A stretch of 64,000 nt of DNA from an uncultured Ignavibacteriales bacterium (GCA_964540105.1 CAZILL010000002.1:811705-875704); one strand, 5' to 3'; positions 3,980 to 17,991 are shown, numbered from the stretch's first letter. Notes: generated by a model from the sequence alone, not told the origin. Translations and numbers: made by a program.

Positions 3980-3985
3980 TGGCGT

Positions 3986-6337
3986 ATGATTCGGCTGTTT
4001 CCGGGTCCATTTGTCCTACTCTTTGTGATTGCCGGCATCATGCTCGGCGACATCACCCATGCCAGCTCCTGGCTCTTTCTCTTTCTGTCCATCCTCTCTT
4101 TTGTTATCGGTATCTACTCAGCGTATCGACGCCGCTTGAAGGCGGCCACGATGGCTCTGGCCGTGTGCATCGGTAGCGCGGCCGGGTTCGAATTCAGTTC
4201 GGGCACGTATGATCTCGGGCCACATCACGTCGCGCGAATAATCCGGGAGCCGCAGGTTTATCAGGTCTTTGGGAAGGTTTCTGACTGGCCTGATATCCGA
4301 TCCACGTACACCGATGTTCGAATCGAGCTCGACTCGATCAGGGGGGACTTTGGCCGCAAAGTGACCGGCGCCATACTGCTGAAAGTGACCGATACGACCA
4401 CTGCTCTGCAACGAGGCGATGCCGTGGAGTTCGTCGGCAGGATCTACCCACTGAAGGGAAGCGACGATTCCCGGGGCGACTATCAGCGACGCCTCGCACT
4501 TCGAGGCATTTTTGGCACCGCGTATTTGCCTACTCTGCTTGATGTTCGCGTGGATCGACGCAGCAGCTACGGACTTGTTCACCAGGCTGATCGCCTGAGG
4601 GAATCGATTAAGGAATCCCTACAGCGAAATCTATCAGTTGAATCGGCAGCGCTGGCATGCGGATTCCTGATCGGAGAAACGCGAGATATCCCCGCTGAAA
4701 TCTATACCCGCTTTCGGGACACGGGAACACTTCATCTTCTGGCCATCTCCGGTTCGAATGTCGCGCTCTTACTTCTGGTCGTTTCCGTCCTGTTGCGACC
4801 GTTCGGCACGTCGCGCGTCACGCGATCGATTCTGCTGCTGGCGGTCGTCCTGGTGTTTTCGCTGATTTGTTATGGAGAACCGTCGGTGATTCGCGCTTCT
4901 CTCATGGCCACCCTTGTGATTCTGGCGCGGCTCGTCGGCCGACGCTACGATCTCAACAATATCATCGGCCTGACCGCTTTACTCATACTCCTCGTCCAGC
5001 CCGGCCAGCTCTTTGATGTCGGCTTTCAGCTGTCGTTTGCGACGGCCTGGGGCTTGATTTTCATCGTCCCGAAAGTTGCCCCGTTACTTGGCAGCTTTGT
5101 GGGTAATCCGTCACGGCAGGTGGATAATGCCGATCCCCAAGGTATGTCGCGGTACCGACTTCTGTTCCGCAGCCGCTGGCTCTCTTGGACACTTCTCTCG
5201 CTTGTTGTCTCTTTCGTTGCTCAGGTATCTTCCGCACCGATCATTATCTACTACTTCCGAGCAATTCCGCTCATCTCCCCGCTGGCGAATCTGCTCGTGG
5301 TCCCGATGGTTTCGTTGAGTGTGATTGGCCTCCAGCTCATCCTTGTAGCCAACCTGATCTGGCCAACGCTTGGGCTGTTCATTGGATCCTTGGTTGATCC
5401 GCTTATTCGCGCCACCTTGCGAGTGGCAAATGCGATGGGTGAGCAGCAGTGGGGAGTCGTCCGCCTCGAGAGCCATGCTGACCGCCTGATTGAGCTATTT
5501 GCAGTATTCTGCGCACTCGCGCTTCCGGCTCTGCTCGCGCTCGCGATAAGCAACAAGCGGTTTAGGCGGATAAGCGTGATCGCTTTCTGCGTGATGCTCA
5601 ATGCCGGGCTTTTCGTAGCTGCCGAGAGTGTTGTAAAGGGATCGGCTCCCTTCGTGCACATCGCCTCCGTCCCCGGTGGAGTTCTTGCGACCGTTTCGAC
5701 AGCGGCAGGCGAACCTGCGGATTGCATTTTGACAGGACTCGTCGGAAAGGAATACCCGGTCGATCAGCGCGTTCTTCTCCCGATTCTGAGCGAGCGGAAG
5801 GTCACCGATCTGGGACGTCTCTTCGTGCTCTCAGTGTCGTACGATGCGGTCGATGAACTGTTCAATCTTTCGGAACGGCTCAGAGTCGATACGCTCTACA
5901 TCCGGTCCGAACTGAGACCAATGATTGAGGACGCCCTGGCAGCCGACAGCACTCGCAGGGAGCAGACGCTGTCCGTATGCTATTTTGGAGACAGGTCTGA
6001 ATCCACACAGCATGCCGGTTATTACCTATCGAATAGCGCAATACGGCTCCACACGGCTGGGCGGGATTTCCAATTCGTGAGCAAGATTGGCTCACATGAG
6101 TTTCCGCCTGTAGAAGGGAGAGGTGCAGTTATGGTCATTGGGGGACCTTGGCAACCCTCAGCGACTGACTGGCTGGATGCGCGCAAGGCTGGTTATGACT
6201 TGGTCGTCTGTTCAAGAATCATACAGTACCACCCCCCGAACATAGACCGTAACGATCCGTATCCGGACCGCGTCGCTCCTGATTATGTCTATGATCTTGA
6301 CCGTCGCGGGAATCTGACCTTACCCTATTCCGAGTAG
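3986..6337 (+). CDS. comEC: ComEC/Rec2-family DNA internalisation channel protein with a degenerate C-terminal metallo-beta-lactamase-like region
   Basis: 783 aa. It has an N-terminal OB-like region (VTGAILLKVTD...GDAVEFVGRIYPL) and the competence-domain signature FRDTGTLHLLAISGSNVALLL within a polytopic membrane core. The C-terminal ~230 aa align in pattern to the ComEC MBL domain but lack the metal-ligand motifs. Confidence 0.85.
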   Translation: MIRLFPGPFVLLFVIAGIMLGDITHASSWLFLFLSILSFVIGIYSAYRRRLKAATMALAVCIGSAAGFEFSSGTYDLGPHHVARIIREPQVYQVFGKVSDWPDIRSTYTDVRIELDSIRGDFGRKVTGAILLKVTDTTTALQRGDAVEFVGRIYPLKGSDDSRGDYQRRLALRGIFGTAYLPTLLDVRVDRRSSYGLVHQADRLRESIKESLQRNLSVESAALACGFLIGETRDIPAEIYTRFRDTGTLHLLAISGSNVALLLLVVSVLLRPFGTSRVTRSILLLAVVLVFSLICYGEPSVIRASLMATLVILARLVGRRYDLNNIIGLTALLILLVQPGQLFDVGFQLSFATAWGLIFIVPKVAPLLGSFVGNPSRQVDNADPQGMSRYRLLFRSRWLSWTLLSLVVSFVAQVSSAPIIIYYFRAIPLISPLANLLVVPMVSLSVIGLQLILVANLIWPTLGLFIGSLVDPLIRATLRVANAMGEQQWGVVRLESHADRLIELFAVFCALALPALLALAISNKRFRRISVIAFCVMLNAGLFVAAESVVKGSAPFVHIASVPGGVLATVSTAAGEPADCILTGLVGKEYPVDQRVLLPILSERKVTDLGRLFVLSVSYDAVDELFNLSERLRVDTLYIRSELRPMIEDALAADSTRREQTLSVCYFGDRSESTQHAGYYLSNSAIRLHTAGRDFQFVSKIGSHEFPPVEGRGAVMVIGGPWQPSATDWLDARKAGYDLVVCSRIIQYHPPNIDRNDPYPDRVAPDYVYDLDRRGNLTLPYSE

Positions 6338-6468: not shown

Positions 6469-7671
6469 ATGAGCTTGTCAGGAAATCTGCGCACGGTTTC
6501 GTTTCCCGATATCCTGCAGTTGCTGGCCACCGGGAAGAAATCCGGAATTCTCGAGTGTCGAACGGCGACTCGACAGAAGGAGGTCGCGTTTCGTGACGGC
6601 AACATCATTTTCGCCTCATCGCTCAACAGCTCTGAAGATCTCTTGGGAAATATGCTGCTCAAGCGCGGGAAGATTTCCAAAACTGATCTCGAGCGGGCCA
6701 TAACGCTGCATCGGCAGACCGGTCGCCAGTTGGGCACGACGCTGATGGATATGAACCTCTTTGACAAGGAAGAGATCGGCTTGTGTCTCAAGTTGCAGAT
6801 TGAAGAGATCGTGTACAACCTGTTCTCATGGACCGAGGGAGACTTTATTTTTCATGAAGGATCGGCGCCGAGAAACGCCCCGTTCCTGATCGAGCTGAGC
6901 ACGATGAGCGTGATCATGGAAGGGACCCGTCGCATCGACGAGTGGTTGGAAATCCAGAAAGTGCTTCCCCCCGATGATGTCCTGTTGCGGATCAACAAGT
7001 CCCCCAAGGCTAACAACGACGAGGTCGTTCTCGCGCTCGACGAATTCCGCCTGCTGTCTCTTATCAACGGTGAGAGAATCGTTCCCGAATTGATCGACCT
7101 GTCGCCAGTGGGCGAATTCGTGACGTGTCGGGCCATCTACAAATTGATCATCAACGGTTTAGTGGAAGTTGCGGGGCGTCGCGAGGCACGTCCTGAAGAG
7201 CAGGAAGATCTGGAGGAGGCGGCGCTCTCGGTCATCTTCTATCTCTATAACAACTGTTTCTTTAGAATACGAACTCTGGTCGAAGGATTGCTTGGTGATA
7301 GCAATAGCCGCTTCTCCGCTTTCACGGCGCAATATCGCAGCGGCGTGCTGACGTTCTTTCCGGGCGTTGACCCGCACGCAGAGCTGAAGCCTCCCTTCGA
7401 CAAGTTCCTTAGTGCCGTCAAAGCCTTACCCGAGGAAACCCGTTACCACACAACAATGAGCCACTTGGAGCGAATGCTCTCGGAGCAATTGGTCTTTGTC
7501 TATGAGCTGCTCGGAACCGGCGCTTTCAGGGAAGCGGTGAATCGCGCCAAGAAAGAGATCTCCGAACCGTTGGCGGTTCGACGAGATCTGGTCCAGCGCT
7601 ACAGCATTGACGAGAGTATCTATGGTACCATAAAGCGAGCTGACAAGATTGTGAAGTTGATGCGAGGATAA
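6469..7671 (+). CDS. DUF4388 (PATAN-like) domain protein
   Basis: The N-terminus LSGNLRTVSFPDILQLLATGKKSGILECRTATRQKEVAFRDGNIIFASS is the typical DUF4388 opening. A second related segment is DEFRLLSLINGERIVPELIDLSPVGEFVTCRAIYKLIINGLVEV. The C-terminal half is helical. Confidence 0.8.
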   Translation: MSLSGNLRTVSFPDILQLLATGKKSGILECRTATRQKEVAFRDGNIIFASSLNSSEDLLGNMLLKRGKISKTDLERAITLHRQTGRQLGTTLMDMNLFDKEEIGLCLKLQIEEIVYNLFSWTEGDFIFHEGSAPRNAPFLIELSTMSVIMEGTRRIDEWLEIQKVLPPDDVLLRINKSPKANNDEVVLALDEFRLLSLINGERIVPELIDLSPVGEFVTCRAIYKLIINGLVEVAGRREARPEEQEDLEEAALSVIFYLYNNCFFRIRTLVEGLLGDSNSRFSAFTAQYRSGVLTFFPGVDPHAELKPPFDKFLSAVKALPEETRYHTTMSHLERMLSEQLVFVYELLGTGAFREAVNRAKKEISEPLAVRRDLVQRYSIDESIYGTIKRADKIVKLMRG

Positions 7672-7674
7672 ACT

Positions 7675-8058
7675 ATGAAACGAAGCGTTCTTTCAGCACT
7701 AATGATGGCGCTCCTGCCTTTCGCGAATGTGAGCGTTGCCGCTCAGACTCCCCCTGCTCAAACCGTAGCGGTGACTACCGCTCCACCCCTGTTTCTGACC
7801 ATTCTCGTTCTTCTGGCGTCAGGAGCTTGCGTGTATTTCTGCTGGCAGGTGTATAGTCTCGTCAGGGGAGGACAACTGAGCCGCAGCTGGCTGTTCTTTG
7901 CGGCCGGGTTCTTTGTGCTCGGCCTCAGCCAGTTCACACAGCTTCTGGACGGATTTGGAGTTTTCTCCGTTCCGAGATTCCTGGTGCCAATGGCGCTCAT
8001 CATGATGACTGGCCTGTTTTCATTTGGGCTACTCGAGACCAAGAAGGTCTTGAGTTAG
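7675..8058 (+). CDS. small membrane protein (signal peptide plus ~3 TM helices)
   Basis: 127 aa. The ATG lies 3 nt after the upstream stop. It has a signal-like N-terminus MKRSVLSALMMALLPFANVSVAAQ followed by three hydrophobic helices. No family is recognised. Confidence 0.55.
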   Translation: MKRSVLSALMMALLPFANVSVAAQTPPAQTVAVTTAPPLFLTILVLLASGACVYFCWQVYSLVRGGQLSRSWLFFAAGFFVLGLSQFTQLLDGFGVFSVPRFLVPMALIMMTGLFSFGLLETKKVLS

Positions 8059-8071
8059 GGTTGAAATTGAG

Positions 8072-8100
8072 TTGACACAATCGGTTGTAGGATTTATTGT
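8072..8100 (+). promoter_or_regulatory. candidate sigma70-type promoter upstream of the TPR-Roadblock gene
   Basis: TTGACA (8072-8077), a 17-nt spacer, then TATTGT (8095-8100), about 74 nt upstream of the ATG at 8174. This is a pattern match only, and the promoter consensus of this lineage is unknown. Confidence 0.25.
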
Positions 8101-8173
8101 TAAGTGATACCGAAAAACCGAAGAACCGGTCTCGGTTGTCTTGCAGTGACTTAACAGAGTAGATAGAGACAAA

Positions 8174-9034
8174 ATGGCTACCGAACTCGAAGAACGAATC
8201 GACAAGTGCCAAAAGCTTCTGGATGTAGATCCGAACTCTCAGATCTTCGCTGCGCTGGCAGAAGCACACCGCTGCAAAGGGGACCTGGAGAAAGCGTTTC
8301 GAGTCTGCCAGTCGGGACTACGCACGCACCCGTCGTACGGGACCGCTCATGTCGTCATGGCCAAGATTAACCTCGATCGCGGGCTGTACGACTGGGCTGA
8401 GGCAGAAGTGAAGAAAGCGATCGAAATCGAGGGGAATGGTCGCGCAATTGAACTTCTCCTCGCGGAGATCTACATCTATAAGGGCGAGTTCAATGCGGCC
8501 GTCAAATTGCTTCGAAAGCTGCACCAAACAGATTCGAAGAACGAACAGATCAAGAAACTTCTGGATATCGCCCTGAAGCTTCCTGAGGAGCAAGCCTTAC
8601 TGATGAAATCCAAGACGCCCCCGGGGTTTGATACTGGAAACCAGTCTGCGCGAGTTCCCAAGTCGGCTGTCCAGGCCACGAGCCAGACGCTTGACATCAA
8701 GGATGTTCTGCAGGCGGGAGTGGCGATCCCGGATATCGAAGGGGCTCTGTTCATAAATGTCGAAGGGTTGGTAGTCGAATCTGAATGGCAAGTGAACCTC
8801 GATCCGAATGTGTGCAGCGCGGCGCTGGGCGACGTCGATCACTTCCTGAACCAGGCGCTCGTCAGAGGGGCTTTCGGGCGGGTTCGCACTACATTGATCG
8901 AGACGGTCGAGCAGGTGTTTTATCTTTTGCACGTCGCTGACGGACTGTTCCTTTTTGTCGGCAATAGCAAGATTAATCTCGGGACGCTTCGCATGCGAAT
9001 CGCGTCTCTCGTGGACAAATACAAAGCCAGATAG
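8174..9034 (+). CDS. TPR-repeat protein with C-terminal Roadblock/LC7 domain
   Basis: The N-terminal ~135 aa are TPR-like helical repeats (GDLEKAFRVCQSGLRTHPSYGTAHVVMAKINLDRGLYDWAEAEVKKAIEIE...). The C-terminal ~110 aa are Roadblock-like: DIKDVLQAGVAIPDIEGALFINVEGLVVESEW...GLFLFVGNSKINLGTLRMRI. Confidence 0.75.
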   Translation: MATELEERIDKCQKLLDVDPNSQIFAALAEAHRCKGDLEKAFRVCQSGLRTHPSYGTAHVVMAKINLDRGLYDWAEAEVKKAIEIEGNGRAIELLLAEIYIYKGEFNAAVKLLRKLHQTDSKNEQIKKLLDIALKLPEEQALLMKSKTPPGFDTGNQSARVPKSAVQATSQTLDIKDVLQAGVAIPDIEGALFINVEGLVVESEWQVNLDPNVCSAALGDVDHFLNQALVRGAFGRVRTTLIETVEQVFYLLHVADGLFLFVGNSKINLGTLRMRIASLVDKYKAR

Positions 9035-9048
9035 GGCAAGAGTTACCT

Positions 9049-10047
9049 ATGCAAGCAAATGGTCCAGTGAATAGTCGGGTCGTGCTGATCACGCTCGTGT
9101 TGTGGATTGTGCCGATGCTCATGTTTCCGCACATGTTCGGCACGGAATTGGCCAGGGATACGATGATCCATCTGGGATACGAGTTTGTGTTCTATGGATT
9201 GGTGGCCGGCATCTTCTTCCGTCGCAACACACTTATCGGTGTAGTTCAAGCGGCGGTGGCCTGTCTGGTCTATCGTATTGCTGTTGGCGCTGTCTTCGGT
9301 CTGCTGGTGGCGGTGATGTACTCGATGAACATAACGGTGACCATGACGCTCGGGATATTCAGTTATCTGCCGGCTCTCTTGCTCCACATTGTTGCGACGC
9401 CTTTTGCGCTCAGCTCAGTATTATCGTCCAGACAGTCATCCGAGCTTCGGCGCCGCAGTTCGTATCGTCCGTCGACATCGAACCCAGTTTCGACGGCCAG
9501 CCATACGTCGATCGCGATTTCCAAGGAGAAGGGGATTGTCAAGGAGACCGCTACCTCGAGAACGGCCCAGACCTTTGAAGCTTCCCGCCCACCTATCGTT
9601 GAACCCGAAAGCTCACTCTCTCCTCTACAACACTCTGAAGTGACCGGATTTGAACGGGCGACGCGGTATCTCGGAGAACATGCGGGAGTGTTCTTGGCAG
9701 TCGTGGTTGATAACGAAGGCTTGCTCCTTTCGAATTTCAAGCGGGGCACACTCAATCCCGAAGATTGGGCGCCGCTGGCGCTGCTATTCCACGACGCCAA
9801 CAGACGCATTCTCGATCGGACTCGTTTGGGAACGCCCGATCGCCTCGATCTCACGCTCAAGGATAAGCGAATCCTGATCGCGAGGGATTCAGTCTGCACG
9901 TTGATGGTTCTCGCCGAGCGGCACGCCGATGACACCCTGAGCATTCGCGCCACGCAGGCGATGGAAATGATCCGTAAATACGTCACCGATCGATTCGGTC
10001 AAAAACAGGATACTAACGCGGAGAGAATACATGTATCAAGTACTTAA
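9049..10047 (+). CDS. membrane-anchored Roadblock/LC7 domain protein
   Basis: Four hydrophobic helices occupy the first ~125 aa, followed by a Ser/Thr/Pro-rich linker. The C-terminus is Roadblock-like: LGEHAGVFLAVVVDNEGLLLSNFKRG...CTLMVLAERHADDTLSIRATQ. Its 3-prime end overlaps the next gene by 17 nt. Confidence 0.7.
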   Translation: MQANGPVNSRVVLITLVLWIVPMLMFPHMFGTELARDTMIHLGYEFVFYGLVAGIFFRRNTLIGVVQAAVACLVYRIAVGAVFGLLVAVMYSMNITVTMTLGIFSYLPALLLHIVATPFALSSVLSSRQSSELRRRSSYRPSTSNPVSTASHTSIAISKEKGIVKETATSRTAQTFEASRPPIVEPESSLSPLQHSEVTGFERATRYLGEHAGVFLAVVVDNEGLLLSNFKRGTLNPEDWAPLALLFHDANRRILDRTRLGTPDRLDLTLKDKRILIARDSVCTLMVLAERHADDTLSIRATQAMEMIRKYVTDRFGQKQDTNAERIHVSST

Positions 10048-10372
10048 TGATCTGAACAAAACGCCCGGGATCACCGGCTCGATGGTGGTTGGCAATGACG
10101 GGATCGTGATCGCAGCAGACCTCGAGGCCGGGTTTGAGAGTGAGACCGTTGGCGCTCTGGCAGCTTCCATTACGACCAATATCCAGAAATCATTGGATCG
10201 GCTGCACACGAGTCCCCTCAATCAGGTGACGATCGAAGCGGACGACGCCAAGTTGTTCTTCACGGACGCCAACATGGGGATCCTGGTGGTCACGACCGAG
10301 AAGAACGTGAACATTGGCTTGATCAGACTGGAGATCAAGAACGCCGTCGGCAGGCTAAAATCGCCTCACTAA
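10031..10372 (+). CDS. stand-alone Roadblock/LC7 domain protein (MglC-like size)
   Basis: 113 aa. LNDLNKTPGITGSMVVGNDGIVIAADLEAGFESETVGALAASI...GILVVTTEKNVNIGLIRLEIK is a full-length Roadblock pattern. Confidence 0.8.
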   Translation: MYQVLNDLNKTPGITGSMVVGNDGIVIAADLEAGFESETVGALAASITTNIQKSLDRLHTSPLNQVTIEADDAKLFFTDANMGILVVTTEKNVNIGLIRLEIKNAVGRLKSPH

Positions 10373-10404
10373 GCACAGGCAGTCATTAGCGTAGGAAAGA
10401 ACAT

Positions 10405-11448
10405 ATGGTTTCGATTAACTACTCGGCACGCGAGGTCAGCTGTAAAATTGTCTATTATGGCCCCGGATTATCCGGCAAGACCACCAACCTGCAGTACGTT
10501 CATGCGAAGGTTCCTCAGAATACTCGCGGCAAACTCATCTCACTCGCCACGGAAGCCGATCGGACTTTGTATTTTGATTTCCTTCCGATCAACATCGGGA
10601 ATATCAACGGCTTTACCGCAAAGTTCCAGCTCTACACCGTTCCTGGGCAGGTCTATTACAATGCGACCCGCAAACTCGTCTTGCGCGGTGTGGACGGTGT
10701 CGTGTTTGTCGCCGACAGTCAACCCGACAAGATGGATGAGAATCTGGAATCACTGTTGAACCTCGAAGAGAATCTGGCCGAATATGGCTATTCCGTGGAA
10801 GATCTTCCGATTGTCATCCAGTACAACAAACGGGACTTGCCCAACGTGCTCTCGGTCGATCAATTGAACGCTCAGCTCAACAAACGTGGTTGGCCCTACT
10901 ATGAAGCCTCCGCGACTATAGGAAACGGGATATTCGATACGCTGAAACTGGTGATCAAACTCGTTCTCGACAAAGCCAAGAATATCGGGGCCGCCCGCAT
11001 GCGACCGTCGGCTTCACTGGTGCCTTCGGCCGAGATACCGACCCCTCAATTCGAGCGAGTCGAGGTTCCGGCTGCGATGACATCAGAACGAATCACGCCC
11101 GCCGACAGCGGACGAGTATCGATACCGGAGCCTGTAGCCGTGGCCGCGCCAGCGCAAACGTCAACCCCCGAGCCAGCGGCCTTCCGGCCGTACCCTGGCA
11201 GCGGACGCCGCCCAAGCCCCGAACCACATCCCTATCCGCTCGAGGCTGAGTCGACAATCTCTCCGGCGCCCCGGCACACATCGGTGGTCACTGAGATGGA
11301 TGCGTTCAACCATGAAGCCGAGGAGATCGCGGAACATCGTTCATCGACTGAACCGACTCAGCCTCATATGGCTCCTTTCTTGAAGCGTCGACATGAGAAG
11401 GTTACCAAGAAACGCGGGTTCTTTGCGCGTCTCTTCGGATTGAAATAG
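10405..11448 (+). CDS. mglA: MglA-family Ras-like polarity GTPase with ~155-aa C-terminal extension
   Basis: Residues 1-192 align along their length with Myxococcus MglA as I recall it. Matching elements are INYSAREVSCKIVYYGPGLSGKTTNLQY (P-loop), ADRTLYFDFLP (switch 1), LYTVPGQVYY (the MglA-specific TVPGQ) and IQYNKRDLP. A Pro/Ala/Ser/Glu-rich tail follows, ending KKRGFFARLFGLK. Confidence 0.9.
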   Translation: MVSINYSAREVSCKIVYYGPGLSGKTTNLQYVHAKVPQNTRGKLISLATEADRTLYFDFLPINIGNINGFTAKFQLYTVPGQVYYNATRKLVLRGVDGVVFVADSQPDKMDENLESLLNLEENLAEYGYSVEDLPIVIQYNKRDLPNVLSVDQLNAQLNKRGWPYYEASATIGNGIFDTLKLVIKLVLDKAKNIGAARMRPSASLVPSAEIPTPQFERVEVPAAMTSERITPADSGRVSIPEPVAVAAPAQTSTPEPAAFRPYPGSGRRPSPEPHPYPLEAESTISPAPRHTSVVTEMDAFNHEAEEIAEHRSSTEPTQPHMAPFLKRRHEKVTKKRGFFARLFGLK

Positions 11449-11465
11449 ATAACAAGGAGGCAGAA

Positions 11466-11951
11466 ATGTCAGAAGATATACTCATCATTTATGAAGAAGA
11501 GATTAACAAGATCGATGCCCTTCTGAGTAAGATGATCAAGGGAGCCGAGGCCAAGTGCGCGCTTGTCGTGGATAAAGATGGCCATCTCATTACCCGCCAA
11601 GGATTCACCCATTCACTGGACACAACGGCTCTGGCGGCGCTTCTGGCCGGCAGCTTCGCCTCCACAAAAGAGATCGCCCGCCTTGTGGGAGAGCCCGAAT
11701 TCTCGGTGCTGTTCCACCAGGGGAAGAAAGATCACATTCACATGTCGATCGTCGGCGAACGATCCATCCTCGTCGTGATCTTTGATGACCGCACGACGAT
11801 CGGAATGGTCCGCCTCTACGCGAGGGAAACCGCTCAGGAACTGGCCGCGGTATTCGGACAGATCACCAAGAAGACGGACTCCAAGCCGGTGGTGAACACC
11901 AATTTCGCTACGGTTGCCCAAGACCGACTTGATGATATCTTTCAGGATTGA
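11466..11951 (+). CDS. mglB: MglB (Roadblock-type GAP of MglA)
   Basis: 161 aa with a strong SD (AAGGAGG) 6 nt upstream. It is collinear with Myxococcus MglB as I recall it: IYEEEINKIDALL...AKCALVVDKDGHLITRQG...LDTTALAALLAG...ILVVIFDDRTTIGMVRLYA...ITKKTDS...DDIF. Confidence 0.88.
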   Translation: MSEDILIIYEEEINKIDALLSKMIKGAEAKCALVVDKDGHLITRQGFTHSLDTTALAALLAGSFASTKEIARLVGEPEFSVLFHQGKKDHIHMSIVGERSILVVIFDDRTTIGMVRLYARETAQELAAVFGQITKKTDSKPVVNTNFATVAQDRLDDIFQD

Positions 11952-12028: not shown

Positions 12029-13720
12029 ATGTCTGCAGAACTCGGCGCCTTGCTCGTCAGTGCTGGGAAGATCACCCAGGAACAGGCTGATAAAGCTCTA
12101 TCCATTTCCAAGGAACGGAAAGAGAAATTCGGCGCAGCTCTGGTGCAGATAGGGGCCGTGCAGTCAGAAGACGAACTCGCTTCGTTTGTCGGAAAACACC
12201 TTAAGATCGGCGCTCTTCGGCTCAGTGACATCGAAATCAACCCCGATGTCGTTAAGCTCATACCGCTTGACATAGCCCGTAAATTCAAAGTCATCGCCGT
12301 CTCCCGCGTCAACAAGACGTTACTGGTCGCGATCAGCGATCCGAACAATATCTACGTTCTCGACGCCGTTAAATTCATAACGGGTTGCACCGTCCAGCCT
12401 GTTATCTCCCCGGAAAAGGCGATTGAGAAGGCGATCGACGTTCTCTACGCCGACAGCAGCGGCCTGTCGGAAATCGTGAAGGGTCTGGAAGAGTCGGACC
12501 TCGAGGTCGTGGCCGTTGACGAAGGGCTCAATGAGACCGACCTCCTGTCGGCCATTCAAGACAAACCGCTGGTCAAGCTCGTTGATTCAATCATCGGCGA
12601 CGCCATCCGCATGGGGGCGTCTGATATTCACTTCGAAATGTATGAAAAGAAAGTTCGCGTCCGCTACCGCGTCGACGGTGATCTTCAGGAAATGGCGCCT
12701 CTGCCGTTCAAATACCGGGCAGCAATGGTCTCGCGTATCAAGATTATGGCCGACCTGGATATTTCTGAGCGTCGACTCCCGCAGGACGGGCGCATCAAGA
12801 TCAAGTTTGGTGGACGCACGGTTGATCTCCGCGTGTCGGTCTTGCCGACAATCTTCGGCGAGAAAGTTGTCATGCGAATTCTCGACCCGACGGCGCTGCG
12901 CATCGACATGACCCAACTGGGGTTCCGTGAACAGGATTTGGTACGGTTCGAGGAGAAGATCCACTCGCCGTACGGCATTGTCCTGGTGACCGGCCCAACC
13001 GGTTCAGGAAAGACCACGACCCTATACTCCGCACTTCAGCAGTTGAACACCGTGGATGTCAACATCATGACCGCGGAGGATCCGGTGGAGTTCAACTTCG
13101 ATGGTATCAATCAGGTAGCGGTTCGGCCCGACATCGGGTTGACCTTTGCGGCGGCTCTTCGGTCGTTCCTTCGGCAGGACCCGGATATCATCATGGTCGG
13201 TGAGATTCGTGACAGCGAAACGGCCGAGATCGCCATCAAAGCCGCTCTTACCGGCCACCTTGTCTTTTCAACGCTTCATACCAACGACGCACCATCATCG
13301 GTCACCCGTCTCATCGACATGGGGATTCCGTACTACCTGGTGGCCTCGGCGACCAAGCTTATCATGGCTCAGCGTATGATGCGCAAGATTTGTCAACGCT
13401 GCAAGGAAGAGATTAACCTGACTCAGGAGCAGGTAGACAGCCTCAAGGTCCCAAAAGAATCGCTGCGGAATATCAGGGCCTTTCGTGGCGTCGGGTGCAA
13501 CGATTGCGGCAATACCGGAAAGTCCGGCCGAATTGGTATCTTCGAAGTCCTCCCGATCACTCCTGCCATCGAGAACCTCATCTTGGCCAAAGCCTCCGAC
13601 TCCGATTTTCGCCGGGTCGGTATCGAGGAAGGCATGTACAGCCTACGTATGGCAGCCGTAGAGAAGATGAAGAGCGGCATGGTCTCGATAGAGGAAGTGT
13701 TCGCCATTACGACCGCCTGA
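12029..13720 (+). CDS. pilB: type IV pilus assembly ATPase PilB (GspE family)
   Basis: 563 aa. It has an N-terminal T2SSE_N-type domain, Walker A GPTGSGKTTTLYS, the Asp/His boxes (IMVGEIRDSETAEIA, TGHLVFSTLHTNDA) and a tetracysteine motif CQRC...CNDC. Confidence 0.9.
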   Translation: MSAELGALLVSAGKITQEQADKALSISKERKEKFGAALVQIGAVQSEDELASFVGKHLKIGALRLSDIEINPDVVKLIPLDIARKFKVIAVSRVNKTLLVAISDPNNIYVLDAVKFITGCTVQPVISPEKAIEKAIDVLYADSSGLSEIVKGLEESDLEVVAVDEGLNETDLLSAIQDKPLVKLVDSIIGDAIRMGASDIHFEMYEKKVRVRYRVDGDLQEMAPLPFKYRAAMVSRIKIMADLDISERRLPQDGRIKIKFGGRTVDLRVSVLPTIFGEKVVMRILDPTALRIDMTQLGFREQDLVRFEEKIHSPYGIVLVTGPTGSGKTTTLYSALQQLNTVDVNIMTAEDPVEFNFDGINQVAVRPDIGLTFAAALRSFLRQDPDIIMVGEIRDSETAEIAIKAALTGHLVFSTLHTNDAPSSVTRLIDMGIPYYLVASATKLIMAQRMMRKICQRCKEEINLTQEQVDSLKVPKESLRNIRAFRGVGCNDCGNTGKSGRIGIFEVLPITPAIENLILAKASDSDFRRVGIEEGMYSLRMAAVEKMKSGMVSIEEVFAITTA

Positions 13721-13878
13721 TCGTTCAGGCTTGTGTCTGCCATCCCTGTTATCCATCAACAGGTTATCTCTCACCCCCGACAAGTTTTCAATCAAGAATC
13801 CTCGCCCGGCGCCGATATAGTTAGGGTAAGCATTCCTGCTCGAAAACAACCGGAACCTGGCTCTGGGAGACTGTTTAT

Positions 13879-14955
13879 ATGTCGTTGCGTGAATTACTCG
13901 AACACATGGTCAAGATGGGTGCGTCGGACCTACATCTCACCGTTGGCGCCCCGCCCGTTGTGCGCGTCGACGGCCGATTGCAACGACTCAGTGGTCAGGA
14001 CTTGTTGACATCGGAGCAGATTAAGAAGCTCGCGTACTCGATGCTCAACGAGAAGCAGAAACTGAAATTCGAACAAAACTCGGAGCTTGATTTCTCTTTT
14101 GGGATTGAGCAGATGAGTCGCTTTCGCTGCAACATGTTCATGCAGAGAGGCAATGTCGCCGTCGCGATTCGCCAGATACCGTACAATATCAAGACCTTCG
14201 ACGAACTCGGGCTGCCCAAAGTTATCGCCGAGTTCAGCAAGCTCCCTCGGGGTCTCGTGCTGGTTACCGGCCCGACCGGCTCCGGTAAATCAACTACTCT
14301 GGCGGCGATCATCGACAAGGTCAACAAAGAACGTCCTGTCCATATCATCACCGTTGAGGATCCGATTGAATACCTGCACCGTCATCAGATGGCGCTGGTA
14401 AATCAGCGGGAAGTGTATTCCGACACGCAATCATTCTCCGCGGCCCTGAAGTACGCCCTTCGCGAGGATCCCGACGTGGTTCTGATTGGTGAAATGCGCG
14501 ACCTGGAAACCATCGAAGCTGCGCTCTCGATCTCCGAGACCGGGCATCTGGCTTTTGCGACACTGCACACCAACTCCTGTGCCGAGACCATCAACCGGAT
14601 CGTGGATGTCTTCCCGACGAACCAGCAGGAGCAGATTCGAGTAGCCCTCTCTTTCTCGCTTCAGGCAGTGGTATCGCAGACCCTCATTCCCAAGGTCGGC
14701 GGCGGGCGCGTGATGGCTATGGAGGTCATGGTTGCGACGCCGGCCATCCGAGCCATCATCCGCGACGATAAAGTGCACCAGGTGTATTCCATGATCCAGG
14801 CGGGACAGAAATTCGGGATGAAAACAATGAATCAGTCGCTGGCCGAACTCTACACCAGCGGCCGGATAACCATAAACGATGCGATGAGCTACAGTCACAA
14901 CACCCAGGAGCTCAGCGAGATGCTGAACCGGCAGAAGACGCCGGCGTATTCATGA
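13879..14955 (+). CDS. pilT: twitching-motility retraction ATPase PilT
   Basis: 358 aa. It carries MGASDLHLTVGAPPVVRVDG, Walker A GPTGSGKSTTLAA, VLIGEMRDLETIEAAL, TGHLAFATLHTNS and the PilT-type AIRAIIRDDK (AIRNLIRE-like) motif. Confidence 0.92.
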   Translation: MSLRELLEHMVKMGASDLHLTVGAPPVVRVDGRLQRLSGQDLLTSEQIKKLAYSMLNEKQKLKFEQNSELDFSFGIEQMSRFRCNMFMQRGNVAVAIRQIPYNIKTFDELGLPKVIAEFSKLPRGLVLVTGPTGSGKSTTLAAIIDKVNKERPVHIITVEDPIEYLHRHQMALVNQREVYSDTQSFSAALKYALREDPDVVLIGEMRDLETIEAALSISETGHLAFATLHTNSCAETINRIVDVFPTNQQEQIRVALSFSLQAVVSQTLIPKVGGGRVMAMEVMVATPAIRAIIRDDKVHQVYSMIQAGQKFGMKTMNQSLAELYTSGRITINDAMSYSHNTQELSEMLNRQKTPAYS

Positions 14956-14981
14956 TGGGTAAGCAGGAAAGGAAATAGATC

Positions 14982-16178
14982 ATGCCGGTCTTTGAATACA
15001 AGGGCAAGACCTTAGCCGGAGCCGCCGTACAGGGGACCCTGAAGGCTAACAGCAAAGGGGAACTTGAGCGCCTTCTGCGCCGAAACCGCATCCTGGTGTC
15101 GTCGATAAGCAAACGCGCTCCGGAGATAAGCATCAAGTTTGGCACAGGCATCAAGAAGGTTGAAATCTCACGCTTTACTCGCCAGTTCGCGACCATGATC
15201 GGCGCCGGTCTCCCCATGGTTCAGTGTCTCGAAATCCTTTCTTCGCAGACCGAGAATAAGGAGATGGCCAAGGTTATCGGGGCGATCAAGAGCGGCGTTC
15301 AAGGAGGCTCGACCCTCTCGGAGTCCATGGCCCGCCACCCGAAAGTCTTTGACCCGCTGTACACTAACATGGTCGAAGCGGGTGAGGTTGGGGGTGCCCT
15401 CGACGCCATCCTGATTCGGTTGGCTGTCTATCGCGAGAAGGCCGACAAGTTGATTCGCAAAGTTAAAGGGGCGATGATGTATCCGGCGGTGATCGTTGTG
15501 GTCGCCACGGGCGTTACGATCGCGATGCTGACCTTCATCGTGCCGGTCTTCGCCAAGATGTTCGCAGGTGTTGGCGCCGAACTGCCGGGTCCCACTCAGG
15601 TCGTGCTCTCTCTGTCCAATTTCCTCAAGGCCAATATTGTCTATCTCGCACTTGGGGTTATCGGGCTGGTTGTCGGCGTCGTGTACTGGAAGAAGACCCC
15701 CAGCGGAGCGCTGAATTTCGACCGCATCCTCCTTAGGATGCCGGTCCTTGGGAATCTGGTGAGAAAGTCGTCGGTCGCTCGCTTCACCCGGACTTTGAGC
15801 ACCCTGCTTGCCTCCGGCGTTTCCATCCTTGATGCTTTGGAGATTACGGCCAAGACTTCGGGTAACCTTGTCGTGGCAGCGGCAATCAACAAGTCCGTGC
15901 TGGCCATCGCCGAGGGAGAAACCATCACCGGACCGCTGAAGGAGACCGGCGTCTTCCCGCCCATGGTCATTCAGATGATCGGCGTCGGTGAGAAGACCGG
16001 TGGTCTGGACGACATGTTGAATAAGATCGCTGACTTCTACGATGAAGAAGTTAATGATGCAGTGGCTGCGCTGACCTCTGTTATCGAGCCAATAATTATT
16101 GTGCTGATGGGTATTATCATCGGCGGTATTCTGATCGCTATGTACCTGCCGATGTTCGACATTATCGGAAAGATCTGA
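14982..16178 (+). CDS. pilC: type IV pilus platform protein PilC (T2SS F family)
   Basis: 398 aa with two T2SSF repeats. Supporting motifs are RFTRQFATMIGAGLPMVQCLEIL, RFTRTLSTLLASGVSILDALEI, GEKTGGLDDML and a C-terminal LPMFDIIG. Confidence 0.92.
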   Translation: MPVFEYKGKTLAGAAVQGTLKANSKGELERLLRRNRILVSSISKRAPEISIKFGTGIKKVEISRFTRQFATMIGAGLPMVQCLEILSSQTENKEMAKVIGAIKSGVQGGSTLSESMARHPKVFDPLYTNMVEAGEVGGALDAILIRLAVYREKADKLIRKVKGAMMYPAVIVVVATGVTIAMLTFIVPVFAKMFAGVGAELPGPTQVVLSLSNFLKANIVYLALGVIGLVVGVVYWKKTPSGALNFDRILLRMPVLGNLVRKSSVARFTRTLSTLLASGVSILDALEITAKTSGNLVVAAAINKSVLAIAEGETITGPLKETGVFPPMVIQMIGVGEKTGGLDDMLNKIADFYDEEVNDAVAALTSVIEPIIIVLMGIIIGGILIAMYLPMFDIIGKI

Positions 16179-16245
16179 TCACGACGCACACTGGCTGCAA
16201 AAGCCGGTGTCAATGTCAGGGCTCTGATCAGGGATATGAATGAGA

Positions 16246-16272
16246 AAGACGGCGCCGCCCCGGTGCCGTCTT
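16246..16272 (+). terminator. strong GC-rich hairpin between pilC and the kinase gene (terminator or attenuator)
   Basis: AAGACGGCGCCG (16246-16257), a CCC loop, then CGGTGCCGTCTT (16261-16272). This gives a 12-bp stem with one G-U pair. It is followed by AGTTTTA and then ATG 16279. Confidence 0.5.
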
Positions 16273-16278
16273 AGTTTT

Positions 16279-17991
16279 ATGGAACAGCAAGAACGACTCC
16301 GTCGACTCGGTTGGTTTCTGCCCCTCAGGCTGGCGTCCTACGTCATCTTGATGGCCGTGGTGGCGGTCTGGATGGGTTATCCGCGTTACCTTCAGTTCCA
16401 GGTCATCAGCTATTCAATTTGCACACTGGCCTTTACGCTCTCTTTCGCTCTTGAACGGCGTTTTTCACTTTCGCGGGTCACCCATGTTCTTGTCGCTATT
16501 CAATTCCTTTTAGAGATTTCGCTTGAGGGCGGAATCATCTACACGACCGGCAACGTCAACTCGCCGTTTTCGGCGCTCTTTCTGCTCACGATTGTATCGG
16601 CGGCGCTCGCCTATCGCCTCATGGGGACAATTGTCGTGGCCTCGATCGTTTCTCTGGCATATACCTTCATCATCTGGCTGGGGCTGAGCCAGTCTTCCGA
16701 TTCCGAAATGAATGTGCAGGCCTTGCGAACGATCTTCGCCAGCCAGGACGATGTCTTCTATTCGATATTTCTGCATATTCTGATCTTCTTTCTCATCGCA
16801 TTCATCTCCGGCTATCTCGCTGAACGCCTCAGCAGCCAGGACAAGCGCCTGGCCGACGCGTCACACGCTCTCAAGCTGGCCCGGCTGGAGACGGATGATA
16901 TTCTCCGCCATGTCAACTCCGGATTATTGACCATCGATTCAAGCGGGCACGTCATCTACTTCAATCATGCTGCCGAACGCATCCTGGGGTATCGGGAAGA
17001 GGAGGTACGTGGGCTGGCATGTGAGCAGGCTTTTGCCGAACGAATGCCGGTTCTTGCCCAACGACTCAAAGAAGGAATTCAGCAGGGGATAGAGCACCCC
17101 CGCCGCGAGATCGAAATCATTAATGCCGATCGTATACCGATTCCGCTTGGACTTTCCACGTCGATTCTTATGGGTGAAAGTGGTCTCGTGCGAGGCGTGA
17201 TTGCCATCTTCTCCGATCTCACCGAGGCTAAGGCGCTTGAAGCGAAAGTACGCGCCGCCGACCGGTTGACCGCGGTGGGCGAGCTCTCGGCGTCGATTGC
17301 CCACGAAATCCGAAATCCCCTGGCCGCGATTTCCGGGTCGGTCGAAGTTCTCAACAATGAACTGCAACTAACGGGTGAGAACGCCCGCCTGATGAATCTC
17401 ATCATCAAAGAATCCTCGCGGCTCAACAAAATCCTCTCGGACTTCTTGTCGTATGCCCGGGTCGATCGGCCCACGTACGACAAGGTTGAACTCTGCCACA
17501 TTGTTTCCGAAGTCATTGAGCTGCTGTATCATCAGGGGGAATTCAAGGATAACGTGAGCATCCGCTTTGACAGTGCGGAATCAATCGTGTATGTCATCGG
17601 CGATGGCAACCTGTTCAAGCAGTTGCTGATGAACCTGATGTTGAACGCTTGCGAGGCTTTTGAGGGGAAAAGGGGAGAGGTTGTCGTAAAGCTTGAGACG
17701 CGAACTTCATCAAGAACAGTTCTTCTTTCGGTTAGTGACAATGGCCCCGGCATCCCGGAGTCTCGTCTCGAAAGAATCTTCCAACCCTTCTACTCGACCA
17801 AGAAACACGGCACGGGTCTGGGACTCGCGATTGTTCACAGAATCTGCGCAGCCCTGCGAGTGAACACACATGTACACTCTCGTGTCGGGCAGGGGACGGC
17901 GTTCGTTCTCGAACTGCAGCGATACTCGCAGGATACTCCTCTCGAACACTACGGCAACGACGCCCCGGCTCTTCAGATCACTCACTCCTGA
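16279..17991 (+). CDS. PilS-like sensor histidine kinase (polytopic N-terminus, PAS, HisKA, HATPase)
   Basis: There are about 6 N-terminal TM helices and a PAS segment ILRHVNSGLLTIDSSGHVIYFNHAAERILGY. The H-box is SASIAHEIRNPLAAISG, and the ATPase boxes are LMNLMLNACEA, DNGPGIP and GTGLGLAIVHR. I moved the start from 16240 to ATG 16279 so that the hairpin at 16246-16272 is not coding. Confidence 0.85.
   Translation: MEQQERLRRLGWFLPLRLASYVILMAVVAVWMGYPRYLQFQVISYSICTLAFTLSFALERRFSLSRVTHVLVAIQFLLEISLEGGIIYTTGNVNSPFSALFLLTIVSAALAYRLMGTIVVASIVSLAYTFIIWLGLSQSSDSEMNVQALRTIFASQDDVFYSIFLHILIFFLIAFISGYLAERLSSQDKRLADASHALKLARLETDDILRHVNSGLLTIDSSGHVIYFNHAAERILGYREEEVRGLACEQAFAERMPVLAQRLKEGIQQGIEHPRREIEIINADRIPIPLGLSTSILMGESGLVRGVIAIFSDLTEAKALEAKVRAADRLTAVGELSASIAHEIRNPLAAISGSVEVLNNELQLTGENARLMNLIIKESSRLNKILSDFLSYARVDRPTYDKVELCHIVSEVIELLYHQGEFKDNVSIRFDSAESIVYVIGDGNLFKQLLMNLMLNACEAFEGKRGEVVVKLETRTSSRTVLLSVSDNGPGIPESRLERIFQPFYSTKKHGTGLGLAIVHRICAALRVNTHVHSRVGQGTAFVLELQRYSQDTPLEHYGNDAPALQITHS

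Follow-up and report, generated by a model that had tools for sequence, protein, structure and literature searches.

Introduction

MglA and its partner MglB are the model of a bacterial Ras-like switch for front-rear polarity, and what is known of them comes almost entirely from Myxococcus, in which MglA is a soluble protein recruited by other proteins. In this study we analysed a window of 64,000 nucleotides (nt), i.e., the whole stretch GCA_964540105.1 CAZILL010000002.1:811705-875704, recorded under the name of an uncultured Ignavibacteriales bacterium. It carries, at positions 6469-11951 (+ strand), seven open reading frames (ORFs) encoding a PATAN protein (ORF1), a small membrane protein (ORF2), three proteins with Roadblock domains (ORF3 to ORF5), MglA and MglB, directly upstream of the motor genes for type IV pili. 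The order of this block was the same in all the loci that we surveyed in Candidatus Zixiibacteriota, the phylum to which the window belongs, and its MglA has a long tail with a predicted membrane-targeting end. On balance, and with moderate confidence, we read the module as a type IV pilus polarity/activation switch of the Zixibacteria, a Group-1 MglA/MglB pair at the inner membrane face that would be wired to PilB, PilT and PilC.

Several described systems are close to this locus. Roadblock dimers serve as GTPase-activating protein (GAP) for MglA (PMC3199381), and another report ascribes both GAP and guanine nucleotide exchange factor (GEF) behaviour to MglB and describes RomRX as an effector that sequesters MglB (PMC13408092). 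MglC, a Roadblock paralogue, binds MglB and RomR, not MglA, and has no GAP activity (PMC4719450). According to PMC7519303 and PMC7668184, MglA of M. xanthus stimulates pili with the tetratricopeptide repeat (TPR) protein SgmX. A Roadblock platform is presented as the GEF for Rag GTPases in PMC3747258, and the Roadblock/LC7 superfamily was proposed to comprise general regulators of nucleoside triphosphatases (NTPases) (Koonin and Aravind 2000, cited by PMC4316618). On the pilus side, the PATAN domain of PixE in Synechocystis is membrane-localised, binds the N-domains of PilB1 and PilC and is enough to switch pilus polarity; in the same study, mglA/mglB homologues regularly neighbour PATAN genes (bioRxiv 10.1101/2021.06.11.447907), and in a survey of prokaryotic Ras-like GTPases Group 1 and 5 mglA genes occasionally adjoin them (PMC4316618).

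The locus shares with the Myxococcus system a G domain that aligns end to end, a full-length MglB, extra Roadblock paralogues, a TPR protein and the type IV pili. It differs from it in that (i) its MglA has a 150-residue tail with a MinD-like end, compared to solved M. xanthus chains of ∼200 residues, (ii) its Roadblock domains are fused to a TPR array or to an anchor of four transmembrane (4-TM) helices and are encoded with mglA instead of being orphans, (iii) it lies directly upstream of pilBTC, with mglA preceding mglB, and (iv) neither RomR nor RomX was seen in the block. The cyanobacterial PATAN-REC proteins of the PatA type (PixG, PixE, PilG) have, like ORF1, a PATAN domain with an alpha-clip insertion; however, ORF1 has no receiver domain but, at its C-terminus, 240 residues that are uncharacterised, and it would take its input from MglA, whereas PatA-type regulators are served by a chemotaxis-like phosphorelay.

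In the Ragulator (LAMTOR1-5)/Rag system, several Roadblocks sit on a membrane anchor beside a small GTPase, as they would here. With the C-terminal domains of ORF3 and ORF4 (ORF3-C and ORF4-C) the likeness is one of fold alone (LAMTOR2 in Foldseek, ∼18% identity), an integral 4-TM domain serves as anchor where Ragulator has lipidated LAMTOR1, and the GTPase is MglA where Ragulator serves a Rag heterodimer with Roadblock domains of its own. In the actinobacterial conservon (CvnA-D), a GTPase of the MglA family forms a membrane-associated complex with one Roadblock and one membrane protein, partners of a kind also encoded here; the Group-2 MglA, histidine kinase CvnA and DUF742 protein CvnC of the conservon have no counterpart in the seven-gene block, and ORF5 matches CvnB5 at E 3e-4, so that we do not class the block as a conservon.

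The sequence-only reading, a first description of this DNA by a model, had not recognised the architecture as described. For the exact module this stands: our literature search, in an incomplete library, found nothing on it or on Zixibacteria or Fibrobacterota in connection with MglA, and no TPR-Roadblock or TM-Roadblock proteins associated with MglA. Its components are less novel, as the linkage of PATAN to MglA/MglB, extra Roadblock paralogues (MglC) and Group 1 MglA with two MglB homologues are already published. What appears to be new is a known system in a conserved, further elaborated form, together with a widespread class of predicted tail-anchored MglA.

A seven-gene block conserved across the Zixibacteria

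The seven genes and their products are the following (aa, amino acids).

6469..7671, + strand: ORF1, 400-aa PATAN (DUF4388/PatA_N) protein (PF14332, 112 bits, E 1.9e-32)
7675..8058, + strand: ORF2, 127-aa small membrane protein (hydropathy)
8174..9034, + strand: ORF3, 286-aa TPR-Roadblock fusion (Pfam TPR, AlphaFold2 (AF2), Foldseek)
9049..10047, + strand: ORF4, 332-aa membrane-anchored Roadblock protein (AF2, Foldseek, hydropathy)
10031..10372, + strand: ORF5, 113-aa stand-alone Roadblock protein (Pfam Robl_LC7, 46.9 bits)
10405..10992, + strand: MglA G domain, residues 1-196 (M. xanthus MglA 5ymx, E 3.4e-79)
10993..11448, + strand: MglA tail, residues 197-347 plus the stop codon (variable linker with three conserved islands)
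11466..11951, + strand: MglB, 161 aa, Roadblock domain and C-terminal helix (Pfam Robl_LC7, 52.8 bits)

All seven ORFs are co-directional. From ORF1 to MglB the gaps measure 3, 115, 14, -17 (the last 17 nt of ORF4 being shared with ORF5), 32 and 17 nt; a further 77 nt separate the end of mglB from the start of pilB. The sequence-only reading had placed seven ORFs with tiny gaps or overlaps at exactly these positions, and every one of its domain calls (PATAN, small membrane protein, TPR-Roadblock, 4TM-Roadblock, stand-alone Roadblock, MglA, MglB and pilBTC) was correct. No fifth Roadblock protein was found in the window with locally built family hidden Markov models (HMMs).

The named relatives of the module proteins belong to Candidatus Zixiibacteriota (synonym GN15). 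One genome per GTDB species was scanned with the TPR-Roadblock alignment, which identified 130 genomes, and 80 loci were kept. As far as the contigs reach, the order comEC, seven genes, pilB-pilT-pilC-pilS was identical in 80/80 species genomes. Three distant relatives of ORF4 (35–40% identity) likewise had the context rpsT-murJ-comEC, the seven genes and pilB-pilT-pilC-pilS; the gene order is fixed although ORF4 is no more than 33–47% identical across the surveyed genomes. The neighbourhood is thus conserved well beyond this contig, contrary to the outcome that would have refuted the earlier description, and in the surveyed genomes it is phylum-wide. The median identity to the window was 69% for ORF1 (79 orthologues), 41% for ORF2, 54% for ORF3, 40% for ORF4, 78% for ORF5, 58% for the whole MglA protein (the G domain itself being near-invariant), 79% for MglB, 78% for PilB and 83% for PilT. 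The degree of conservation of PilB and PilC is equalled by ORF5, by MglB and, in ORF3, by the TPR part, which fits fixed protein partners.

Several of the loci carry the labels uncultured Ignavibacteriales, Calditrichota or Deferrimicrobium (L012, L013, L015, L052, L053 and L054, among others). As their identities fall within the range of the loci labelled Zixibacteria, these are probably loose or wrong labels of metagenome-assembled genomes, and not a sign of spread outside the phylum.

The G domain and MglB have the features of a Group 1 MglA/MglB pair

In addition to its match with M. xanthus MglA, the G domain can be aligned over its whole length with MglA of T. thermophilus (3t12, E 1.5e-73). 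The translation contains every MglA signature named in the sequence-only reading (GPGLSGKTT, ADRTLYFDFLP, TVPGQ and NKRD), and the P-loop, an Arg adjoining the G2 Thr, TVPGQ and NKRD are near-invariant in 69 MglA orthologues. Group 1 MglA, as defined by Wuichet and Sogaard-Andersen (2014), has a Ras-like G domain, a P-loop, the motif TxxGQ (Thr for Asp in G3) and an intrinsic Arg finger, its gene being coupled to mglB within four genes. The protein encoded in the window has each of these sequence features, and mglB follows mglA directly and is coupled to it in all loci.

The 161-aa protein was claimed to be collinear with Myxococcus MglB, and this is what the alignment with M. xanthus MglB shows (6h5b; E 4.3e-41, residues 6-160, including the C-terminal DD-x-D-x-F end). 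It also matches T. thermophilus 1j3w (E 4e-16); its score against the NCBIfam MglB model was 92 bits, below the equivalog cutoff of 200. With its Roadblock/LC7 fold, C-terminal helix and collinearity, it belongs to the family of cognate GAPs of MglA. MglA would bind GTP and hydrolyse it under stimulation by MglB. The order mglA then mglB, which had been singled out as a reversal of the Myxococcus order, was considered as a meaningful trait and rejected, as the Fibrobacterota show the same order.

The tail of MglA ends in a predicted MinD-type membrane-targeting sequence

MglA is 347 aa long and extends ∼150 aa beyond the solved M. xanthus chains (∼200 residues), a tail that the sequence-only reading had missed. 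The linker of this tail is compositionally biased (Pro, Ala, Glu, Ser, Arg), poorly conserved and disordered, and is punctuated by three conserved islands.

11182-11202, + strand: FRPYPGS island, residues 260-266
11368-11391, + strand: MAPFLKRR island, residues 322-329
11407-11445, + strand: terminal KKRGFFARLFGLK, residues 335-347

All 73 MglA orthologues (73/73; 311–399 aa) have [RK]P[YF]P in the tail, within the fuller island [Y]RP[YF]PG[S], and all 73 terminate in P-x-MAPSLRRR-x(3-5)-KKRGFFKRLFGIK, with KKRGFFKRLFGIK near-invariant. The conserved islands are candidate docking sites.

The end of the tail is almost the MinD sequence: E. coli MinD is targeted to the membrane by KGFLKRLFGG (PMC5471200), and the tail consensus RGFFKRLFGI is identical to it at 7/10 positions, in register. 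The hydrophobic moment of the tail 10-mer (0.54, compared to 0.45 for the MinD sequence) is indistinct from that of shuffled sequences; the prediction that this end binds membranes is therefore drawn from the similarity to MinD and the terminal position. A search of PDB sequences with the 26-residue tail peptide gave no match. As in MinD, the element is terminal, basic and hydrophobic. However, in MinD it is placed directly on a ParA/MinD ATPase whose dimerisation controls binding, whereas here it is carried by a Ras-like GTPase at the end of a long disordered linker. By analogy with MinD, residence of MglA at the membrane would depend on clustering or on the binding of a partner.

How common such tails are was assessed by a HMMER search of 1.84 billion representatives with the window MglA, which returned 2406 proteins at E ≤ 1e-30. 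Among the best 150 of these 2406, 147 have at least 300 aa, long tails being favoured in the ranking because the query carries one. A MinD-like end, scored as a basic run followed by hh..hh, was present in 45/150 of these best representatives, compared to 0.2% of internal windows used as control, and a hydrophobic, transmembrane-like end in 13/150 (e.g., P0249, P0281 and P0310), so that a membrane-binding element is predicted at the end of 58/150. A further MglA group ends in KKKGFFDGLFKKDK (P0226, P0228, P0241 and P0259). We found no account of an MglA with a membrane-targeting tail in the literature library searched, which is incomplete.

The accessory Roadblock proteins form a lineage of their own

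ORF3, ORF4 and ORF5 each contain a Roadblock domain, with the following parts in the two fusion proteins.

8177-8608, + strand: ORF3 TPR array, residues 2-145
ORF3 disordered linker, residues 147-169
8696-9016, + strand: ORF3 Roadblock domain, residues 175-281
9061-9456, + strand: ORF4 N-terminal helical membrane domain, residues 5-136
9646-9996, + strand: ORF4 Roadblock domain, residues 200-316, preceded by a variable disordered linker

In Pfam, ORF3 has TPR matches and a Robl_LC7 match of 21.5 bits, just below the cutoff of 23, and ORF4 a partial Robl_LC7 match of 15.5 bits. Structure models were clearer. The AF2 model of ORF3 has a mean predicted local distance difference test (pLDDT) score of 85.8, and in that of ORF4 residues 200-316 exceed 93, with an alpha-beta-beta-alpha-beta-beta-beta-alpha topology. 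Foldseek retrieved consensus TPR proteins for ORF3 along with an Asgard Roadblock, LAMTOR2 and MglB, and for ORF4 the Asgard Roadblock 7yh1, LAMTOR2, a Streptomyces Roadblock and MglB, in both cases at target-normalised template-modelling scores of 0.7–0.84. The assignment of both C-termini as Roadblock, made from the sequence before any model was available, was therefore confirmed, and ORF3-C, ORF4-C and ORF5 all have the Roadblock/LC7 fold (AF2 domains of ORF3 and ORF4 with pLDDT ∼90 or higher; Pfam for ORF5). ORF3 has 641 database relatives. In ORF4, hydropathy supports membrane segments at the N-terminus; because positive charges follow TM2 and TM4, the Roadblock domain is placed, by inference, in the cytoplasm. 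In the membrane part of 87 full-length ORF4 relatives, P27, G31, E45, R76, Y106 and P108 are conserved. These polar or helix-breaking residues, and also P118, lie inside the membrane helices.

ORF5 is the closest relative of the Roadblock domains of ORF3 and ORF4. The ORF3-C HMM found ORF5 at 1.4e-16 and the ORF4-C HMM found it at 4.4e-8, whereas the MglB profile found MglB only. In hhalign comparisons the ORF3-C/ORF5 pair scored a probability of 97.8% (E 8e-13) and the ORF4-C/ORF5 pair 77.8% (E 2e-5); all alignments of the accessory Roadblocks with MglB were weak (0.8–40%). Against the PDB, the ORF5 family profile matched the Asgard Roadblocks 7yh1 (2e-12) and 7f8m (5e-9) well ahead of CvnB5 (3e-4), MglB (0.055) and MglC (7ct3, 0.93). 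From this mutual similarity and the weak scores with MglB and MglC, the accessory Roadblocks are thus a separate lineage and not recent copies of either protein. ORF5 was considered as an MglC orthologue and rejected on the contrast between 0.93 for 7ct3 and 2e-12 for 7yh1; membership of the MglC (MglB_orphan1) subfamily does not apply either, as the accessory genes are coupled to mglA and are not orphans. ORF5 may still have an MglC-like function. As Roadblock proteins generally dimerise, we infer that ORF5 pairs with the Roadblock domains of ORF3 and/or ORF4.

These relationships bear on the proposal of the sequence-only reading that the accessory proteins would be additional GAPs or GEFs acting directly on MglA, as a catalytic multi-Roadblock scaffold. 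The precedents cited above invite it, as Roadblock dimers act as GAP for MglA (PMC3199381) and as a GEF platform for Rag (PMC3747258) and MglB itself combines both activities (PMC13408092), and the accessory genes are tightly linked to mglA. However, the similarity of the accessory domains to MglB is weak by the hhalign and profile scores given above, MglC has lost both MglA binding and GAP activity (PMC4719450), and a canonical, highly conserved MglB is already encoded in the block. A direct GAP role is not favoured, because the extra Roadblocks are related to each other and not to MglB, and we consider a catalytic scaffold of this kind unlikely.

The PATAN protein, the small membrane protein and the pilus motor genes

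The block invariably begins with ORF1, whose PATAN domain (residues 4-159) covers profile positions 1-121 of 122 of PF14332, alpha-helical insertion included, and is followed by a C-terminal region of ∼240 aa without family match. The insertion is a homologue of the alpha-clip (GSPII/MshEN) of PilF and MshE.

6625..6801, + strand: alpha-clip (MshEN/GSPII-like) insertion in PATAN, residues 53-111 (NF053729)

It scored 40.5 bits against NF053729 of NCBIfam ('MshE-related c-di-GMP motif'), for a cutoff of 38, and the ORF1 family profile matched the GSPII domain of T. thermophilus PilF (6e-8) and the N-domain of V. cholerae MshE (7e-6). The insertion is near-invariant in 77 orthologues. Compared to MshEN, it keeps Gln110, the LG and most of the hydrophobic positions at unchanged spacing; however, the RLG motifs have neither of their Arg (L58 and Q87 instead), an invariant His81 stands in motif I at position 24 (Gln in MshEN), and motif II has Asn or Gly at the Gly10 position. 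It thus fails the relaxed MshEN motif for cyclic di-GMP (c-di-GMP) of Wang et al. (PMC5013675), yet narrowly passes NF053729. After this check of the motif residues, a role of ORF1 as c-di-GMP receptor was rejected as unproven; the alpha-clip may bind another ligand or may merely be a PilB-like interaction surface.

ORF2 starts with a stretch resembling a signal peptide and has some three hydrophobic helices, with no family match in Pfam or NCBIfam. It is present in 81 loci (118–128 aa). A conserved RGG..S.W loop was seen in it. The conserved membrane residues of ORF4 and ORF2 hint at a specific membrane complex or at sensing.

Downstream of mglB lie the pilus motor genes and, as last conserved gene of the block, that of a sensor kinase.

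12029..16178, + strand: type IV pilus motor genes pilB-pilT-pilC (Pfam)
12029-13720, + strand: pilB (Pfam T2SSE, 450 bits, and MshEN)
13879-14955, + strand: pilT (Pfam T2SSE, 166 bits)
14982-16178, + strand: pilC (Pfam T2SSF, 222 bits)
16240..17991, + strand: PilS-like sensor histidine kinase (NCBIfam histidine-kinase matches)

The three motor genes between them encode what defines a type IVa pilus motor: an ATPase (T2SSE) that has MshEN as its N-domain, another of the PilT type, and T2SSF as platform protein. The pilS position is conserved in 49 loci, and the orthologues of its product contain the Pfam 6TM_PilS domain.

A simpler module in Fibrobacterota

A related module was found in Fibrobacterota, which make up one large group of the long-tailed MglA proteins retrieved and in which rpsT is followed by genes for a TPR protein of ∼700 aa, a PATAN protein, a long-tailed MglA and an elongated MglB (L086 5568-11384 and L087 5672-11261, from Fibrobacter sp. 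and Chitinivibrionales). The likeness to the Zixibacteria lies in PATAN, long-tailed MglA and MglB in the same order with rpsT nearby, in members of the same Fibrobacteres-Chlorobi-Bacteroidetes (FCB) group. In this MglA group a MinD-like end is present in 106/112 family members, and the MglB proteins have 253–291 aa, that of L087 terminating in KGLFSRFFNRSK, which is MinD-like as well. The TPR protein has no Roadblock domain, and extra Roadblocks, the small membrane protein, adjacent pil genes and comEC are all absent from the Fibrobacterota loci. We found no description of this TPR-PATAN-MglA-MglB module in the literature searched, and the sequence-only reading had likewise missed it.

As it is present in two phyla of the FCB group, the core of TPR, PATAN, tailed MglA and MglB is taken to be older than the Zixibacteria. 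What is specific to Zixibacteria is therefore the small membrane protein, the three extra Roadblocks (the short-TPR fusion, the 4-TM protein and the stand-alone one) and the location of the block directly ahead of pilBTC-pilS. The proximity of rpsT to the modules of both phyla suggests that this gene is an old syntenic anchor.

A proposed membrane-attached polarity switch for type IV pili

Our preference for a pilus polarity/activation switch draws on (i) the identity of MglA and MglB with their intact catalytic motifs, the invariant order with pilBTC-pilS and the tight ORF spacing, (ii) the Roadblock folds of ORF3-C and ORF4-C, the homology among the accessory Roadblocks and the MinD-like tail, and (iii) the precedents of PATAN binding to PilB1 and PilC, of SgmX and of MglC. 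The protein-protein contacts, the membrane binding and the direction of regulation that we infer would be as follows. MglA would be kept near the membrane by its long flexible tail with the MinD-type amphipathic end, whose binding, if the MinD precedent applies, would be stable only upon clustering or with a partner. The MglB Roadblock dimer would speed GTP hydrolysis by MglA, as in Myxococcus and Thermus. ORF5 and one or both of its proposed partners, the anchor protein ORF4 and the TPR protein ORF3, would form a membrane-attached Roadblock platform that sets the position of MglB and/or MglA, a role analogous to that of MglC/RomR, with an architecture analogous to that of Ragulator for the Rag GTPases. 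Two proteins would then relay the state of MglA to PilB and PilC: ORF1 with its PATAN domain, and ORF3 by means of its strongly conserved TPR array, the latter in parallel to SgmX in Myxococcus.

Several points weigh against this reading. The phylum is uncultured, and the account is built from sequence and modelled structures. The hydrophobic moment alone fails to separate the MglA tail from shuffles. The Fibrobacterota run a tailed MglA with MglB, PATAN and a TPR protein but without extra Roadblocks or adjacent pil genes, which implies that the extra Roadblocks are dispensable for the basic cycle and that the link to pili is not universal. Finally, two loci (L030 and L059) keep the seven genes and pilS intact beside frameshifted pilus motor genes; if the frameshifts are real, the seven genes would have a role beyond pili. 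These frameshifts, several in pilB and pilT and in L030 also in pilC, lie at L030 13801-17984 and L059 13868-16817, in loci from the same sample (MFD05942), and reflect errors of long-read assembly or, alternatively, a pilus motor that has decayed to pseudogenes.

A wider and more tentative proposal, which we hold to be possible rather than probable, is that the Zixibacteria run a eukaryote-like, membrane-delimited MglA cycle composed of a tail tether, a hetero-oligomeric Roadblock platform and a PATAN output to the pilus, with simpler versions in Fibrobacterota and other uncultured lineages. The hypervariable linker and polybasic amphipathic anchor would be the counterpart of Ras/Rho tail targeting, combined with Ragulator-like scaffolding, and the YRPYPG and MAPSLRRR islands would dock TPR or Roadblock partners.

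Beside the soluble MglA of Myxococcus, the locus suggests a second design, kept by a whole phylum, in which the GTPase has its own predicted membrane anchor on a flexible tail and three Roadblock modules, one integral to the membrane and one fused to TPRs, are added ahead of the pilus motor genes. If the 13-residue tail is a true MinD-type membrane-targeting sequence, it should be transplantable, and the two short linear motifs and the soluble Roadblock and TPR domains are possibly suited to binding and GTPase assays. Predicted tail-anchored MglA is common in metagenomes and bears on the evolution of small-GTPase membrane targeting.

The same gene order might also arise from a co-regulated pilus operon that is not one machine, in which the accessory Roadblock, TPR and membrane proteins control the PilB/PilT ATPases or the pilus level directly, on a membrane or envelope signal, beside MglA. 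The proposal that Roadblock/LC7 proteins regulate NTPases (Koonin and Aravind 2000, cited by PMC4316618) would accommodate this, as would the sensor-like conserved polar residues in the membrane helices of ORF4 and ORF2 and the PilS-type sensor kinase that closes the block; extra Roadblocks and adjacent pil genes co-occur in Zixibacteria and are both absent from the Fibrobacterota module. However, no case of a Roadblock protein that acts on ATPases of the PilB/PilT type was found, ORF5 lies directly upstream of mglA with a 32-nt gap, and the characterised bacterial Roadblocks encoded beside a small GTPase (MglB, MglC and CvnB) all work with the GTPase. Direct control of the motor beside MglA is, in our estimate, improbable, to the same degree as the catalytic scaffold.

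Immediately upstream of the polarity module, at window positions 2375-6337, lie murJ and comEC, and in relatives (loci L001, L003 and L005) rpsT-murJ-comEC. An alternative is that the module serves competence pili or adhesion, with MglA gating when, and not where, pili form: comEC is always directly upstream, and type IV pili also have non-motility roles such as DNA uptake (bioRxiv 10.1101/2021.06.11.447907). However, comEC is part of a longer conserved rpsT-murJ-comEC housekeeping stretch, and the Fibrobacterota module, itself without comEC, likewise has rpsT nearby, so that the adjacency may be inherited synteny. The block further contains pilT, for the retraction ATPase, and a PilS-like kinase, as in motile systems. 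MglA and MglB of Thermus reportedly affect pilus polarity and not transformation. We give a competence or adhesion module a still smaller chance than direct control of the motor.

A chance juxtaposition or annotation artefact, to which promoter- and terminator-like counts at the shuffled level and a single promoter-like site in the ORF2-ORF3 gap might point, can be dismissed, as the survey found the same order and orientation in 80 species genomes at divergence down to 33% identity, with products of conserved length and high-confidence folds.

Consensus promoter and terminator scans gave counts no higher than those of shuffled sequence, and our claim of an operon is therefore confined to the ORF spacing. 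Within the 115-nt gap between ORF2 and ORF3, at window positions 8072-8100, a sigma-70-like site was found (TTGACA, 17 nt, TATTGT; 10/12 matches), which may be an internal promoter.

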